A DNA stretch of 5,555 nucleotides. It comes from a virus. Below the pieces are notes generated by a model. That model was not told the DNA's origin and searched no databases. It saw nothing but the letters and a program-made list of their open reading frames with translations. Below, piece by piece: positions 508-5,022 of the stretch. The DNA lies in UHGV virus genome UHGV-0338177; one strand, 5' to 3'. Numbering within the stretch: position 1 is the stretch's first letter; every line of letters begins with the position of its first letter. Position numbers and translations under genes: made by a program.

Positions 508-680
508 CAACAACCTCCGCACTTACCAAGGATAAGCCGAGCAAATGGAGAAGAAAAAATTACCGTCTTTTTCGACGAAGGCGTTTTTTTAATTTTCGTA
601 TAAGCCTTTTTATGTTTCGCCTCCTGCCACGTTTTCGAGTATGGTAAAAACCGAATGCCATTACGATTACCTCCTTTCAT
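507..680 (-). CDS. Small basic protein (57 aa). Putative DNA-binding/packaging protein, analogous to the gokushovirus ORF8/VP8 or the phiX J protein.
   Basis: ATG at 680..678 is preceded by GGAGA (GGAGAATAATTATG). Translation is MKGGNRNGIRFLPYSKTWQEAKHKKAYTKIKKTPSSKKTVIFSSPFARLILGKCGGC, which is Lys/Arg-rich. The stop TGA (509..507) overlaps the VP4 ATG (507..505) as TGATG, implying translational coupling. It starts 2 nt after the VP2 stop. Its position, immediately upstream of the Rep gene, matches the small basic DNA-binding gene of gokushoviruses. It falls below the length cutoff of the supplied ORF track. Confidence 0.5.
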   Translation of the reverse strand: MKGGNRNGIRFLPYSKTWQEAKHKKAYTKIKKTPSSKKTVIFSSPFARLILGKCGGC

Positions 681-682
681 AA

Positions 683-1588
683 TTATTCTCCAAATCCCAT
701 TTGCAAAGCTCTTTGATAAGCTTCTTCGCCAGCTTTTTGAATATCACTTTTATACTGCTTTCGTTGAACAGGAGACAAATTTTTGATGCGTGTCTTATCA
801 GCTAGCTTTTGTGTGGCACGTGGATTATAATCAAAAACCAGCATAGGAAATCCAGAGCTTTTAATATCCGCCAAATCATAAACAGAGCCATCAGCCAAAA
901 TAAGCCTATTCTTATAGACACGAGCACCAGCTACGCCAAGACCTTTATTCACAAGGGCTTCAATTATTTGAGTGCCTCCTTCGCTAAGAGAATCCATCCA
1001 AGACTGCTGAGCGTCTTTTTGTGTCAAAGTCAAGCCAAACTGAGAACCGTCAGCCGATAAATTCAAAATAGAATAAGGCGTATTTTCAACAGAAGTAAAA
1101 TCTTTCATTGAAAGAGCACCTAAAGACGACTTAGTCATTTTTGAAAAAGACGGAGCAGAGACAACAGATGAAGTCTTTGGCTTTTCAAGCGCTTTAATTT
1201 GAGCCTCTTTATATTTAGCTTCAGCATTATACATATTTGTCTGCGCTCTCATCATCTGACTTTGAGCGATAATTTGAGACATAGCAAGTCCAGCTTGCCC
1301 TACGGAATTAAGCGCATCACCAACTCCATTACCTCCAGCAGCTTGAAAAGAGGGGCTAAAACTCGCTGAATCTGCACCGAGACCATATATAGGATTAACT
1401 CCTGCACGCTTAGAATCACCAACACGCCAAGAAATACTATTTTGATAAAACTCTTTTTGTGCGTCGTAATTAGCTGCATTAGCTTTCTGCTGAGATCTAC
1501 GATTAGCCGAACCATTAAACCAACTTCCTAAACCACCAAATAAAGCGCTACCACCAGCAAATAATAAACTACCAGTCAAAGGATCCAT
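683..1588 (-). CDS. VP2: Minor capsid / DNA pilot protein VP2 (301 aa).
   Basis: The Gly-rich hydrophobic N-terminus (MDPLTGSLLFAGGSALFGGLGSWFNGS) is followed by a Gln/Asn/Ala-rich segment and the motif 'KRAGVNPIYGLGA'. This resembles the conserved 'AGLNP' region of gokushovirus VP2 pilot proteins, as does the Ala/Gln-rich coiled-coil-like middle. SD AGGAGA lies 4 nt upstream of the ATG (AGGAGATAATATG). The ATG is 1 nt after the stop of the upstream gene. Confidence 0.8.
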   Translation of the reverse strand: MDPLTGSLLFAGGSALFGGLGSWFNGSANRRSQQKANAANYDAQKEFYQNSISWRVGDSKRAGVNPIYGLGADSASFSPSFQAAGGNGVGDALNSVGQAGLAMSQIIAQSQMMRAQTNMYNAEAKYKEAQIKALEKPKTSSVVSAPSFSKMTKSSLGALSMKDFTSVENTPYSILNLSADGSQFGLTLTQKDAQQSWMDSLSEGGTQIIEALVNKGLGVAGARVYKNRLILADGSVYDLADIKSSGFPMLVFDYNPRATQKLADKTRIKNLSPVQRKQYKSDIQKAGEEAYQRALQMGFGE

Positions 1589-1589
1589 A

Positions 1590-2075
1590 TTATCTCCTAT
1601 TCTCTTTTTTACATTTTATAAATTTAGATATGTCGGTCCAGATGGCATTTTTAATTTTAAGACCTTTACCAGAAGTATTCCTCATAATCTCATCACGACG
1701 AACCGAACGAGACCGACATATCGACTTAGCAAACTTATCGAGTTTTTCACGCTCGGTAAGCTCTTGTGAAGTATTATACATTTTTTTGGTTAATGAAAAG
1801 CCTAAATTTAATTTTATTTTATCACGTAAAGAATTTAAGAACTTCGCGCGGCGTTTAGCCATATGATAAGAAACAAATTTACGAGGAGAGGAATGCCTAG
1901 TAACCTGTTGATAAAAATTTTTAAAAACAGGAGGAACTAAAAACATCTCAGGCTTTGATATTTTTCTCAAAGTCGTAATAGAACTTGAAACGATATTTTG
2001 GCGACTTCGTGGTTTTGAAGCACGCCTACGCCTCTTATTTCTAGCTTTTGAAAGGGATAAAAATCTTAAAACCAT
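1590..2075 (-). CDS. Highly basic 161-aa protein with a poly-Arg N-terminal region. Function unknown; candidate DNA-binding/condensing or scaffold-type virion protein.
   Basis: ATG 2075..2073 with SD AGGAG 5 nt upstream (CTAGGAGTTTCAATG). The protein MVLRFLSLSKARNKRRRRASKPRSRQN... is very rich in K/R throughout. It is tightly packed against VP2 (stop, 1 nt, start). I recognise no family motif. Confidence 0.55.
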   Translation of the reverse strand: MVLRFLSLSKARNKRRRRASKPRSRQNIVSSSITTLRKISKPEMFLVPPVFKNFYQQVTRHSSPRKFVSYHMAKRRAKFLNSLRDKIKLNLGFSLTKKMYNTSQELTEREKLDKFAKSICRSRSVRRDEIMRNTSGKGLKIKNAIWTDISKFIKCKKENRR

Positions 2076-2083
2076 TGAAACTC

Positions 2084-2101
2084 CTAGATGGTGTCATCTA
2101 G
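2084..2101. promoter_or_regulatory. Perfect 7-bp palindrome CTAGATG-GTGT-CATCTAG overlapping the SD of the 161-aa gene.
   Basis: Read directly: c2084..g2090 is the reverse complement of c2095..g2101, with a 4-nt loop. On the mRNA strand the stem ends ...CATCTAG|GAG, so the 3' arm covers the AG of the AGGAG SD. This fits a translational operator or protein-binding site. Confidence 0.4.
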
Positions 2102-2129
2102 CACATATTCATCAAGTCGGTGATATGTG

Positions 2130-2155
2130 CCGCAAAAATTTTACAATTTTTGCGG
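2130..2155. other. 11-bp perfect hairpin CCGCAAAAATT-TTAC-AATTTTTGCGG (GC clamp plus A5/T5 tract).
   Basis: Read directly: positions 2130..2140 are the reverse complement of 2145..2155, with a 4-nt loop. No flanking U-tract on either strand, so it is not a canonical intrinsic terminator. Confidence 0.6.
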
Positions 2156-2167
2156 AATAATGTCAAT

Positions 2168-2220
2168 GAAAAAACTTCGTTTTTTCTAAAAACTACCACA
2201 CCAAAACCGAGTTTTTAGAA
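2168..2220. other. Overlapping A/T-tract hairpins: GAAAAAAC-TTC-GTTTTTTC (2168..2186), and an 11-bp inverted repeat TTCTAAAAACT/AGTTTTTAGAA (2184..2194 and 2210..2220) with a 15-nt loop ACCACACCAAAACCG.
   Basis: Read directly; the arms are exact reverse complements. The two structures share bases, so they are alternative folds. Confidence 0.55.
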
Positions 2221-2278
2221 TTTCCAGCCTTAAAGGCGCTGAAATCGCAATAAATTTAAGGGGATTGTGTTACTTTAA

Positions 2279-2408
2279 GAGCGAGCCGCGTGCGTTGCAC
2301 ATAAAGCGTTCGTAAGGTGCGCTTTCAGCGCGATCCTTTCGCTCATCCAGCCGCGTCCTTGCGGCTGATTTGATGATGAGCGAACCCGTTTTTGTCAATA
2401 AAAACGGG
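2279..2408. other. GC-rich structured island in the intergenic region. It contains a small hairpin GCGCT-TTC-AGCGC (2319..2331), a compound hairpin (2338..2384) and an abutting hairpin CCCGTTTTT-GTCAAT-AAAAACGGG (2385..2408). In the compound hairpin the outer stem is TTCGCTCATC/GATGAGCGAA, the inner stem is CAGCCGC-GTCCTT-GCGGCTG, and there is a 7-nt bulge.
   Basis: Read directly. Hand-counted GC over about 110 nt (2279..2390) is roughly 59%, against a visibly AT-rich remainder of the genome. All stems are exact reverse complements. There are no flanking T-runs, so these are not classic terminators. The placement in the single large IGR parallels the complementary-strand origin / primosome-assembly hairpins of phiX174 and G4. 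Confidence 0.55.
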
Positions 2409-2409
2409 C

Positions 2410-2619
2410 TTATACGGGATTGTAGGGTAATTCTGGGAATAAAGAAGGTTGATCATCGATATATTCCCATTGAAATTTAAAAAAGAGTTCTTTGTCTGTT
2501 CGACAAGAACGAATAACTGCCTCAGTAAAAGAGGAATCTCCAGTCATCTCGTAAGGTTTCAACTTATAACTATGCCAGAGCTTACGCCAAGTCTTATAAT
2601 CTAAATCCCAAAGTATCAT
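2410..2619 (-). CDS. Hypothetical 69-aa Trp/Tyr/Phe-rich protein. The track gives an 89-aa version from an alternative GTG start at 2679.
   Basis: ATG 2619..2617 overlaps the TGA stop of the upstream 28-aa ORF as ATGA. Translation is MILWDLDYKTWRKLWHSYKLKPYEMTGDSSFTEAVIRSCRTDKELFFKFQWEYIDDQPSLFPELPYNPV. The stop TAA at 2412..2410 lies 1 nt before the 2408..2385 hairpin. I recognise no family. Confidence 0.4.
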   Translation of the reverse strand: MILWDLDYKTWRKLWHSYKLKPYEMTGDSSFTEAVIRSCRTDKELFFKFQWEYIDDQPSLFPELPYNPV

Positions 2620-2702
2620 ATAAGACCCTTGATGAGTTCCCAAATAGCATTGACAGCGCCAGTTAAAGCCGCGATCCACAAGCCTATGCGTTCCTTATTC
2701 AT
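2616..2702 (-). CDS. 28-aa hydrophobic peptide, probably a single-pass membrane peptide. Candidate lysis or accessory peptide.
   Basis: Strong SD AAAGGAGGTG 8 nt upstream of ATG 2702..2700 (GGATGAAAGGAGGTGATTATTATG), which sits 21 nt after the acidic gene's TAA. Translation is MNKERIGLWIAALTGAVNAIWELIKGLI: a charged N-terminus followed by about 19 hydrophobic residues. The stop TGA overlaps the ATG of the downstream 69-aa ORF (ATGA). It is too short for the supplied ORF track. Confidence 0.4.
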   Translation of the reverse strand: MNKERIGLWIAALTGAVNAIWELIKGLI

Positions 2703-2723
2703 AATAATCACCTCCTTTCATCC

Positions 2724-3188
2724 TTATTCAGTTCCTTTATCAGACGAATCTGATTTGACACCCACTTCTCGCGATTCACTCTCTTTGTGTGAGATTGTAT
2801 CGCCTTTATCCGAGTTTTTAGACTCGGACGCCAAAATACGAGATTCTTTGTCTCTATCGTAGTATTTACCTCTTCGATCGACGGTATCTCTATCTTTATC
2901 AACATAATACTCCTCCTCATCAAAATCGTCATCAATATACTCAACGCTTTCGTAGTCATATACACCACCACCGTGAAGTGTTTGAAACTCTTCATAAGTC
3001 ATCGAACCACGATTTATGCGGTCTAAAGCAGATGAAAGAGTATCGGGCGAATGAACGATATCGACAATACTCTTAGGGTCTAAATCCTCAGTAACGATAG
3101 GGCGAGGCGCAAAACAACCAGTGCGACCAACAGTAGCTTGAATTTCGAACAAGCCCTCAGCTTGTTTTTTCGTAATCTTTGATGGCAT
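2724..3188 (-). CDS. 154-aa acidic protein with an Asp/Glu/Tyr/Ser-rich low-complexity C-terminal tail. Candidate scaffolding-type (VP3-like) or DNA-mimic protein.
   Basis: ATG 3188..3186 with SD AAGGAG 9 nt upstream, 17 nt after the VP1 stop. The C-terminal half is ...YDYESVEYIDDDFDEEEYYVDKDRDTVDRRGKYYDRDKESRILASESKNSDKGDTISHKESESREVGVKSDSSDKGTE. It sits immediately downstream of VP1, where gokushoviruses place VP2/VP3, but it carries no recognisable VP3 motif. Confidence 0.55.
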   Translation of the reverse strand: MPSKITKKQAEGLFEIQATVGRTGCFAPRPIVTEDLDPKSIVDIVHSPDTLSSALDRINRGSMTYEEFQTLHGGGVYDYESVEYIDDDFDEEEYYVDKDRDTVDRRGKYYDRDKESRILASESKNSDKGDTISHKESESREVGVKSDSSDKGTE

Positions 3189-3207: not shown

Positions 3208-5022
3208 TTATTTCAAAATATTTTTAGAACGCTTAGGAATTGGCCGATACGCAACAATGTTGTTTTGTAGCATTACGAGAAAAGCAGGTAAAGAAGAATC
3301 CGTAATAGCGAAAATGTCCTTACGAGGGTTCATTCTCATAAAAGAAGCATTTAAAACAGGAGCTTCAGCAAATTGTCGGCCCAAGTGCCAGAACGATAGG
3401 TCAGTTCTAAAATTTCCCGATAGTCTGCTCTCTTGGTGTCTATATTCGTTATAATTTCCATTGAGAGCATATCCAAATACCTTGTCCTTATTTGATTTGG
3501 TAGCATAAAGTTCTTGTTGAAAAATCTCTTGTGCACCGATGTTAGAAAATTCGTAAGTAAAATAGTCAAATCTACTTCGTTTAAGCCACGCTCTATCGAT
3601 ACCTTGAGTATAGATCGTTTCTGGCCGAATAGACGCGAGACCAATAATAATACCATGCTCAGGGCAAAAGTATTTAATGCGTCTCTGCCGAGCTTGTCCG
3701 ATTCCCATACCAGCCATACTTCCAAGTGGGGTTTGTCCTTGTGCGCCAGGACTAGTTTGTATGACCTCACTAATTTGTAATGGCGATTTATTGCCGCCGA
3801 GATACTCACTTTTGTTGAGTCGGCTATCACGAGGACGGACTCCGAACTCCATACGACAATAATCCTCATATTCTGCTCCATATTTCAAACTCCTTTCGTT
3901 GAAACGCTGATACGCAGAGGCAACACGTAAATCGCGTATATTGATAGCGCCCGCATTTTGATAATTTTGATTTATTGTGAATTCTAAATCATTTATGTTA
4001 AGGTTTTTTATTTGTGATACTTCTTTTACATAAGTAATTGTGTTGTTATTTCGCCTCATGCAGCTGGTGATTGGCGAAATATTTAAATCAATGTTACCTT
4101 TTAAGTATGGTGCGTTTGAATAATTCAACGGGTCTTTAAATTCGATTTTAGTAATAGGCACATAAAATTCAAAATTTGTATTTACAGGGCAAGTCGTAGA
4201 ATCTCCAAAATTTCCGTTTATTCCTCCTTCCGTTATTATTATTCTTATATATCCTTCCGTTATTCCCAACGCGATATTATTACTTATATCTATGCTTCTT
4301 ACACTCGTTTTCAGGCTATCTTGGCCTTTTTGAAGAGTGTTCGGCTCTAATATGATAAGTCCTAATTCTGTTGTCGTTGGTTTTATATTTGTCGGCGTTC
4401 CCGTTGTGTAGGTCGGTTTATAAATAGCGTATCCGCTGGTGTTTTGAGACGACGGAATTACTGGGACACTAACTTGAGCACCGCGTTGGGTAAATGGCTT
4501 CGCCTTTGTGAAGTAATCACGCTTCCAATGGACAGGGAGAAGATCCAAAGGCGTGGTAGTATCAACACCGTCAGAAGTCGAAAATTCAATATCTGCTTCA
4601 ATATCCTCAATTTTGTAATGGTCATTCCAAATTTTGCACATAGCACGAAAAGGCATAGCAGAAACTTCGATACCACCTTGTTTAATAGGAAAACCGAAAT
4701 AATCGGAAAGAGTGTTAGCTTCCCAACCATTTTCAGGCGATTTAACAACAGGATACGAAGGATTAGAAAGACCATCATCACCACCTGTAATAAATTCAGT
4801 CCAATTGTCCCATAATATGCGATACGGCACAAAATAGTATTGCGTAACCCAGTTTATCTGTGAAATCACAGGGGCAACCATAGGTTGTGCACGGAAAATA
4901 GCTTGGTTGGAGATACGAAAAATATCACCGGGCAAGCAATCCTGTATATAAAATGGGATAAGTTTGCCCATCTCCATGGTAGTATGATGTCTATGCGACA
5001 GATTAAATTTACTACGTTTCAT
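3208..5022 (-). CDS. VP1: Major capsid protein VP1 (F-protein family), 604 aa.
   Basis: The N-terminus MKRSKFNLSHRHHTTMEMGKLIPFYIQDCLPGDIF matches the conserved gokushovirus VP1 start (R-S-x-F-x-L-S-H ... M-G-x-L-x-P). The protein is long, with a Thr/Asn/Ile-rich hypervariable insertion (about residues 190-370) as in gokushovirus 'mushroom' loops. Excellent SD AAGGAGG 6 nt upstream of ATG 5022..5020. Confidence 0.95.
   Translation of the reverse strand: MKRSKFNLSHRHHTTMEMGKLIPFYIQDCLPGDIFRISNQAIFRAQPMVAPVISQINWVTQYYFVPYRILWDNWTEFITGGDDGLSNPSYPVVKSPENGWEANTLSDYFGFPIKQGGIEVSAMPFRAMCKIWNDHYKIEDIEADIEFSTSDGVDTTTPLDLLPVHWKRDYFTKAKPFTQRGAQVSVPVIPSSQNTSGYAIYKPTYTTGTPTNIKPTTTELGLIILEPNTLQKGQDSLKTSVRSIDISNNIALGITEGYIRIIITEGGINGNFGDSTTCPVNTNFEFYVPITKIEFKDPLNYSNAPYLKGNIDLNISPITSCMRRNNNTITYVKEVSQIKNLNINDLEFTINQNYQNAGAINIRDLRVASAYQRFNERSLKYGAEYEDYCRMEFGVRPRDSRLNKSEYLGGNKSPLQISEVIQTSPGAQGQTPLGSMAGMGIGQARQRRIKYFCPEHGIIIGLASIRPETIYTQGIDRAWLKRSRFDYFTYEFSNIGAQEIFQQELYATKSNKDKVFGYALNGNYNEYRHQESRLSGNFRTDLSFWHLGRQFAEAPVLNASFMRMNPRKDIFAITDSSLPAFLVMLQNNIVAYRPIPKRSKNILK

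Follow-up and report, generated by a model that had tools for sequence, protein, structure and literature searches.

The viral genome UHGV-0338177, a stretch of 5,555 nucleotides analysed here at its full length (the window), carries a free-standing gene for a 28-residue peptide, situated between the gene of a VP3-like protein and an open reading frame (ORF) of 69 codons, ORF69. By comparison with related genomes, we show that this is a real core gene, with strong purifying selection on its frame, its start context and nearly every residue. The peptide defines a new family, called KERIxLW here, which is spread patchily over deeply diverged microviruses. The reading that we favour, and to which we assign a probability of roughly 45%, is that of a genuine translated core gene of uncultivated single-stranded DNA microviruses, whose product would be a helical peptide acting at the membrane through a small face, most likely in lysis or egress. 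An earlier interpretation, made from the sequence of the window alone (the sequence-only reading), had singled out the ORF as a candidate lysis or accessory peptide and is, as a whole, partly supported.

The ORF extends on the minus strand from an ATG at 2702 to a TGA at 2616-2618, exactly as first reported, and encodes MNKERIGLWIAALTGAVNAIWELIKGLI. Its Shine-Dalgarno (SD) sequence, AAAGGAGGTGA, begins 5 nucleotides past the stop codon of the VP3-like gene and ends 5 nucleotides before the ATG. Counted from the GGAGG core the spacing is 8 nucleotides, in agreement with the strong site and the 8-nucleotide spacer originally described. Its anti-16S match of 11 nucleotides exceeds those of all other genes of the genome, that of VP1 being 8. 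Allowing for one mismatch at most, the 10-mer AAGGAGGTGA is found twice in the window vs 0.21 times expected from shuffles, and it is kept in every relative of the close group defined below, while the distant group has AAAGGAG or GGAG. The claimed ATGA overlap between the stop codon and a second ORF, namely ORF69, is also there. Since ORF69 has essentially no SD of its own (the best match is AAGG), it may plausibly be coupled translationally to the peptide through this overlap. The region had, on the other hand, been taken to be one that should be non-coding. This is wrong, as the true intergenic region is at 2076-2409.

Relatives were collected by a VP1 search of a large protein collection, which provided a graded series of capsids and their contigs, and by a degenerate-pattern scan of metagenome contigs; the genomes recovered in this way are complete or near-complete. 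The peptide ORF is intact in all 16 distinct nucleotide versions found in related circular microvirus genomes, also at VP1 identities of about 51-60%. Ten genomes, with VP1 68-85% identical to that of the window, make up the close group, in which the peptide reads MNKERIGLWIAALTGA[VI]NAIWEL[IVF]KGLI. Beyond Met1, the peptide has 27 residues, 25 of which are invariant, with one to four synonymous codons each, and residues 17 (I/V) and 24 (I/V/F) alone vary. The variable sites at codon positions 1, 2 and 3 number 5, 0 and 24, respectively (the last out of 27 third positions; chi-square p=6e-8), and of the five changes at first positions, three are synonymous (Leu or Arg). The mean amino-acid identity in the group is 0.956, compared to a third-position identity of 0.545, and relative to the window the proportion of synonymous differences (pS) of the peptide is 0.64-0.98 and that of nonsynonymous ones (pN) 0.016-0.073. 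In the same genomes, the peptide is 93-100% identical, VP1 68-85%, VP3 71-82%, VP2 43-81% and the basic protein p161 32-70%, the conservation of the peptide being similar to that of the jelly-roll core of VP1 (pairwise amino-acid identity 0.89-0.93). The distant group, with VP1 51-69% identical to that of the window, has versions of 31-32 residues, such as MPESTKAKISLWITAITGAIGTIWECLKNLL, MMSSSLKERISLWITAITGAVCGLWEILKGVL and MNQSTKERVSLWITAICGAIGTLWEMIKNLI. Invariant across the two groups are K, L-W-I, A, G-A, W-E and K.

These data bear directly on two explanations in which the peptide would have no function. In the first one, the ORF lies by chance over a conserved nucleotide element, for example an origin, a packaging signal or an RNA structure, as might be suspected from its location near the intergenic region and from the frequency of chance hydrophobic ORFs in this genome. 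The sequence-only reading, too, had named conservation of nucleotide structure alone as an outcome that would refute it, and was right in singling out this test as the one that matters. It is the amino acids that are conserved, however: third positions are near saturation, second positions never change, and the frame is kept in all relatives. Rfam, moreover, gives no match for either the peptide region or the intergenic region. In the second explanation, the ORF is only a leader that feeds ribosomes to ORF69, for which the ATGA overlap and the missing SD of ORF69 could be quoted. This does not agree with the strong purifying selection on the amino-acid sequence. Furthermore, the peptide is retained in at least five relatives in which ORF69 is missing (L003, L004, L008, L012 and L014; numbers of this kind denote individual relatives), and in the distant group the order is reversed, with ORF69 preceding the peptide. 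As the peptide persists without ORF69, it is not merely a leader, and with synonymous sites near saturation, ORF69 absent from some relatives and the order reversed in others, its conservation does not stem from a nucleotide element or an overlapping gene. The leader is thus very improbable and the chance ORF even more so, and on these comparative grounds both are effectively excluded.

The gene is essentially unannotated, and no source names it. Gene callers report the peptide in few contigs only, with no call in the window's own source contigs, and an exact look-up among 15 billion proteins returns just three called versions, none of them named.

More remote homologues were found with a profile of the clade, which was run against all 1,257 ORF segments from eight relatives in GenBank. 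The best match (hmmsearch E=4e-4) is a protein of 29 residues from Peromfec virus RodF8_37 (UPW41629.1; MKAQITLWVTAISAFIMSILDTLEKIGVL), and tblastn with this sequence gives two more records, among them bajarodmic virus 497 (MKERITLWLTAISAFLMSVVDLLAKVGIL). In these microviruses from rodent faeces, the peptide is labelled 'hypothetical protein' in GenBank, and VP1 is 32-34% identical to that of the window. Homologues are located elsewhere in the genome, either in the interval from VP2 to Rep or in that from Rep to VP1, where an ATGA overlap links the gene to VP1. This means that the small gene has changed its place in the course of microvirus evolution. Two chicken microviruses have an unannotated ORF of 26 residues with an SD (MKEKVIMWLGWIVAACEAVVNFLGTV, E=0.023), a suggestive further member. 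We define the KERIxLW family by a length of 26-32 residues, a head of the form K-[EA]-[RKQ]-[IV]-x-L-W-[ILV]-[AT]-A-[IL]-[TSC], an acidic residue near position 22, and an SD-preceded, free-standing ORF in a microvirus. The alignments place the window peptide within this definition.

Outside the family, very little is matched. Pfam, PHROGs and NCBIfam yield no significant match for the peptide, the sole PHROG match being a marginal one to a family with no assigned function (E=0.18). A concatenated query of 180 residues from six family members finds nothing at E<=10, tblastn of the clade peptides against GenBank phages gives no true matches, and a PDB sequence search returns only designed Kelch repeats, which are noise. 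An exhaustive phmmer search with the 31-residue form against 1.84 billion representatives recovers only its own 30-residue cluster and one ankyrin-repeat protein. In the latter case, residues 295-315 of the protein (P0122), corresponding to one repeat (TPLWVAAQNGHVDTIRVLAKLG), are matched with E=1e-4, and the peptide pattern LWIAA..G....I..L.K.G resembles the ankyrin helix-turn-helix consensus. Because AlphaFold2 predicts a straight helix for the peptide, this is probably a chance resemblance. Membership in the DinQ/TisB-type toxin family was also considered and rejected, as the DinQ-like DqlB model of NCBIfam (NF041473) scores 13.4 bits (E=0.053), below its cut-off of 35 bits; here, too, there is resemblance only.

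The AlphaFold2 prediction is a single continuous helix, covering residues 3-30 of the 31-residue form with a predicted local distance difference test score (pLDDT) of 87. The approximately 19 hydrophobic residues described in the sequence-only reading are not a clean stretch, being broken by N18, E22 and K25. Over the best 19 residues of the peptide, the Kyte-Doolittle mean is 1.61, which is at the classical threshold, and the hydrophobicity is comparable to that of the hydrophobic domain of MS2 L and far below that of phiX174 E. A helical wheel places G7, A11, T14, G15, N18, E22 and K25 on one face, and G7-A11-G15-A19 constitute a small-xxx-small register, which is occupied by S/T/G/A in the distant group. 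W9, W21, E22 and K25 are invariant, the two tryptophans being 12 residues apart, and the peptide contains no proline.

The helix could also be that of a soluble, non-membrane subunit of the capsid, scaffold or pilot complex, its hydrophobic surface being a protein-protein interface. All helix faces are invariant in the close group, the transmembrane propensity is merely borderline, the conservation matches the VP1 jelly-roll core, and the only non-family match found by phmmer is to an ankyrin-repeat helix pair, all of which would suit such a subunit. The predicted structure, however, is one straight helix with no hairpin, a lone hydrophobic helix of 28 residues is unlikely to be soluble, and relatives have clearly transmembrane peptides at the same locus. 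We therefore consider a soluble subunit to be improbable.

According to the membrane reading that we favour, the strongest SD in the genome would drive synthesis of the peptide, and the ATGA would pass ribosomes to the optional ORF69. The peptide would insert in the host cytoplasmic membrane with its short charged head (NKER) on the cytoplasmic side, and the small/polar face (G7-A11-G15-A19 together with T14, N18, E22 and K25), with bulky aliphatic residues elsewhere, would allow tight packing. Two options can be envisaged for the latter, namely self-association to a pore, as in the case of TisB or a pinholin, or binding to a conserved host membrane protein that would thereby be inhibited, as in the case of phiX174 E or LysM. 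The outcome would be host lysis or egress, the sole essential microvirus function for which the genome has no recognisable gene. Searches of the genome's ORFs against Pfam, PHROG and NCBIfam reveal no peptidase, amidase, lysozyme or phiX174 E homologue, and no other recognisable lysis gene is present. Lysis or egress would be the likeliest role of all, at less than even odds. As the sequence-only reading had stated, gokushoviruses have no identified lysis gene, and their genomes are without a peptidoglycan-synthesis inhibitor (PMC7062461). Microvirus peptidases are only sporadic, and overprinted genes were explicitly left out of the survey in question (PMC9239249).

Additional information comes from relatives without the peptide, where the same gap after VP3 is filled by unrelated small hydrophobic ORFs that have an SD and are conserved with synonymous variation. 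There are at least two families of these, MKKN[KR]LCYIGLYTLGIVLCVCGVLGFGLLLYKS[IL]F and MLEYLFL[ML]AFF... (MLE[FY]...; MKKN[KR]LCYIGLY...), and L004 and L014 have an extra, strongly hydrophobic ORF beside the peptide. The ORFs are unannotated in the GenBank records L025, L027 and L028, and of those from metagenomes only the one in L014 is gene-called. Exchange of small, mutually unrelated membrane proteins at a fixed locus is characteristic of lysis cassettes, and the replacement by non-homologous hydrophobic ORFs after VP3 therefore supports a role in lysis. A more far-reaching proposal, which we regard as tentative and on the doubtful side, is that a large group of non-phiX microviruses has its missing lysis effector in the KERIxLW peptide, which, in contrast to the fast-evolving overprinted lysis genes, would be free-standing, abundantly translated and conserved residue for residue.

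It is important to note that a number of points weigh against the lytic membrane reading. The summed Hessa scale amounts to an unfavourable +3.4 kcal/mol, with N, E and K inside the helix. The predicted transmembrane propensity is borderline, and the same holds for the earlier term transmembrane-like. In this AT-rich genome, the same Kyte-Doolittle score is reached by 14 of 78 stop-to-stop segments (25-60 residues, six frames); taken alone, the peptide ORF is not beyond chance, and it is the comparative data that give it significance. Near-total invariance, with no I/L/V swaps at most positions, is unusual for the fast-evolving single-gene lysis proteins, and would equally fit a tightly packed viral assembly subunit. 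The very strong SD suits a pore-former and argues against an inhibitor of the E type, which is needed in small amounts. A conserved ORF overprinted in VP1 (ORF176, see below) is an alternative lysis candidate. No family member was found in phiMH2K, Chp2 or SpV4. Finally, GTDB genomes scanned with the peptide pattern and a VP1 alignment gave no match, hence no prophage and no host assignment.

A further alternative is a non-lytic membrane accessory protein in the manner of phiX174 K, which could be involved in anchoring or organising replication or assembly, in aiding VP2 in DNA delivery, or in superinfection exclusion. The helix and membrane features are the same in that case, and core-gene conservation together with the strongest SD suits a stoichiometric partner. 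In addition, the structural genes next to it differ by lineage, as it follows VP3 or VP2 or, in L032, is coupled to VP1 by an ATGA, and lysis could be provided by the separate overprinted ORF. phiX174 K is dispensable, however, whereas the peptide is kept in every member of the clade, and a superinfection-exclusion gene is not normally so constrained. We judge an accessory role of this kind to be unlikely, while still deserving serious consideration.

A comparison with known systems is instructive. The single-gene lysis protein E of phiX174 (Bullavirinae), an inhibitor of MraY, is likewise a small microvirus protein with a membrane helix, as proposed for the peptide, and needs no muralytic enzyme; a helix face contacting a conserved membrane target would also explain the conservation at the residue level. 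Unlike E, which has 91 residues and is overprinted in the scaffold gene, the peptide has 28 and is free-standing with a very strong SD, and sequence similarity is absent, with neither Pfam nor PHROG giving a match. E depends on MraY and SlyD and has an essential proline in its transmembrane helix, whereas the helix of the peptide has none. phiX174 K and phiMH2K OrfN, the latter annotated as 'similar to phiX174 E and K proteins', are also small hydrophobic microvirus proteins with unproven or accessory function, but both are overprinted, have 56-109 residues and show no homology to the peptide.

The lysis peptides of single-stranded RNA phages (MS2 L, AP205 L, LysM) are the smallest known lysis effectors, and the peptide shares with them the size class, a charged head followed by one hydrophobic helix, and moderate hydrophobicity. 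AP205 L has 35 residues, and LysM of phage M, which targets MurJ, has 37 (PMC12506998). These phages belong to another virus realm, however, and the peptide does not have the Leu-Ser motif of the L type. Its conservation is also far higher than the rapid de novo turnover of lysis genes in single-stranded RNA phages (PMC7693330) would suggest.

The type I toxins TisB (29 residues) and DinQ (27 residues) have the same length as the peptide and consist of a single amphipathic membrane helix with few charged residues, as proposed here, their mode of action being an oligomeric pore and depolarisation. The peptide differs in being a viral core gene with a strong SD that is not repressed by antisense RNA, and the toxin and anti-defence alternatives raised in the sequence-only reading fit poorly with a core gene under such constraint. 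Holins and pinholins of double-stranded DNA phages are small membrane proteins present in high copy, whose non-homologous families swap at a fixed locus. Helix faces of the glycine-zipper type (small-xxx-small) line the hole in these proteins. In contrast to them, the peptide is one short helix with no charged C-terminal tail past K25, and no endolysin or adjacent muralytic gene of the peptidase, amidase or lysozyme families is present anywhere in the genome.

The mode of host lysis in microviruses outside the phiX174 group is a recognised gap in knowledge (PMC7062461, PMC9239249), and the peptide offers a concrete, synthesisable candidate of 28 residues under unusually strong constraint, with natural variants that chart the tolerated substitutions. 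If it is indeed a lysis effector, no smaller single-gene lysis protein would be known. Its conservation would then be explained by a small face that locks onto a conserved enzyme of cell-wall synthesis in the host membrane, or by self-assembly to a defined pore. It would also represent a minimal 'protein antibiotic' scaffold and point to its target, which would open a new route to antibacterial design. Annotation systematically misses short genes with a strong SD, in this case the peptide, a 33-residue arginine-rich protein of the DNA-binding type, the small hydrophobic ORFs and the overprinted capsid ORF, so that part of the 'limited gene repertoire' ascribed to microviruses may be a gene-calling artefact.

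As to the genome itself, the window is a complete circular microvirus genome displayed as the reverse complement of the coding strand, with every gene on the minus strand (Table 1). Joining the ends closes the 342-codon frame of Rep over the junction, and the identical sequence is present in two ENA contigs of 5,610 bases, i.e. 5,555 plus a terminal repeat of 55 bases, one of which has a coverage of ca 39,000x. SD sequences precede all genes of the genome, which argues against a Bacteroidota host without pointing to any particular one. Genetic code 4, and with it a mollicute host, was rejected, as the long ORFs are all intact under table 11 and the local G+C content is 31-48% across 1800-3000.

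Table 1. Positions of the features discussed, in the window and in relatives.
Genome	Feature	Position	Strand	Remarks
Window	Rep	507 -> 1, wrapping 5555 -> 5049	-	PF23343
Window	VP1 capsid	5022 -> 3208	-	Phage_F 9e-90; PHROG 514 3e-138
Window	ORF176, 176 codons, +1 frame of VP1	3881 -> 3351	-	AAAGGAG SD and ATG
Window	VP3-like, scaffold-position, acidic 154-residue protein	3188 -> 2724 (stop codon 2724-2726)	-	assigned by position and conservation only
Window	SD AAAGGAGGTGA	2708..2718 (read 2718..2708)	-	5 nucleotides before peptide ATG
Window	28-residue peptide gene	2702 -> 2616	-	stop included
Window	ATGA stop/start overlap of peptide and ORF69	2616..2619 (ORF69 ATG 2619..2617)	-	seen in window, L005, L007, L010
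Window	ORF69, 69 codons (MILWDLDYKTWRKLW...)	2619 -> 2410	-	adjoins peptide gene through ATGA
Window	Two perfect hairpins directly after ORF69 stop	2338..2408	-	9-bp stem 2385-2408; 10-bp stem 2338-2384
Window	Intergenic region, 334 nucleotides	2409 -> 2076	-	true intergenic region
Window	p161, basic 161-residue protein	2075 -> 1590	-	
Window	VP2 pilot protein	1588 -> 683	-	PHROG pilot families
Window	Small basic-protein locus	680 -> 507	-	
Window	33-residue arginine-rich ORF (MAFGFYHTRKRGRRRNIKRLIRKLKKRLRRKRR)	560-661	-	after AAGGAGGTAA, same 5-nucleotide spacing as peptide
L031	Peptide homologue	4023-4112		
L032	Peptide homologue	4723 wrapping to 4		ATGA-coupled to VP1
L004	Post-VP3 hydrophobic ORF	4805-4903		SD-preceded
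L014	Post-VP3 hydrophobic ORF	3675-3764		SD-preceded
L025	Post-VP3 hydrophobic ORFs	2240-2347, 2357-2431		SD-preceded
L027	Post-VP3 hydrophobic ORF	2357-2434		SD-preceded
L028	Post-VP3 hydrophobic ORF	2237-2344		SD-preceded

The gokushovirus label given in the sequence-only reading is not supported. The gene order of the window is VP1-VP3-peptide-ORF69-intergenic region-p161-VP2-basic protein-Rep, and thus differs from the VP1-VP2-VP3-...-Rep order of phiMH2K and Chp2, which are classified gokushoviruses. The top VP1 match among GenBank phages is 44%, to unclassified chicken microviruses. Going by gene order and capsid match, the genome would be that of an unclassified microvirus. Close relatives are absent from GenBank phages (nucleotide search) and from IMG/VR, where VP1, VP3 and two degenerate patterns back-translated from the peptide were scanned for and none gave a match. 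The VP3-like protein has no Pfam or PHROG match.

In each of the eight close-group genomes tested, the overprinted ORF176 stays open over 177-189 codons, and in the distant group it is closed. Its length exceeds that obtained in 2,998 of 3,000 synonymous-codon shuffles of VP1, and in the close group the synonymous diversity of VP1 falls from 0.45-0.47 to 0.31 at this ORF (p=8e-8), vs no drop in the same VP1 region of the distant group (0.51 vs 0.53, p=0.41). The product has a weakly hydrophobic segment and no family match. ORF176 is probably a clade-specific overprinted gene, arranged as E is in D of phiX174, which would make it a rival candidate for lysis. The 33-residue ORF, for its part, looks like a DNA-binding protein of the J/VP8 type. 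Its MAFGFYHTRKR head and SD are kept in most relatives, a shorter M[KR]W[FY]HTR head is seen in L009, L013 and L018, and the ORF was not found in L014 or L015. Gene callers report in its place an overlapping frame of 57 residues (507-680), which may be spurious or a second product. An alternate-frame ORF of 71 residues in VP2 (1300-1515, minus strand) has a hydrophobic stretch and is open over 68-78 codons in most close relatives, with 60-68% identity. This one aside, the hydrophobic ORFs in alternate frames of Rep and VP2, as well as the one at 4458-4832 in the N-terminal part of VP1, do not stay open consistently among the relatives and were rejected as genes.

ORF69 is 67-79% identical in eight relatives and absent from at least five others, while two further loci have no usable match; in L003, an ATGA remnant is retained where ORF69 is deleted. 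It is therefore an optional accessory gene. Its AlphaFold2 model consists of four short helices (pLDDT 68, moderate confidence) and has no PDB fold match. The hairpins directly after its stop codon, which a simple terminator scan did not flag, could mark the end of the transcription unit carrying the peptide. The best sigma-70-like site in the genome, by consensus match only, is TTGACA-17-TAAAAT at 2166..2138 on the minus strand (11 of 12 matches), inside the intergenic region. The peptide and ORF69 would, in this arrangement, form the promoter-distal end of a genome-length transcript.

The intergenic region contains further perfect inverted repeats, with 11-bp stems at 2130-2155 and at 2184-2220, and parts of it are conserved at the nucleotide level in relatives, where they are seen as a recurring pseudo-ORF, '...RKNCKIFAAH..DLM..C'. 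The region may hold an origin, a promoter or a terminator. In VP1, codons ca 181-360 (window 3940-4480, minus strand) constitute a hypervariable capsid insertion, with a pairwise amino-acid identity of 0.25-0.57 compared to at least 0.9 in the flanks, which is presumably a surface loop setting host recognition.

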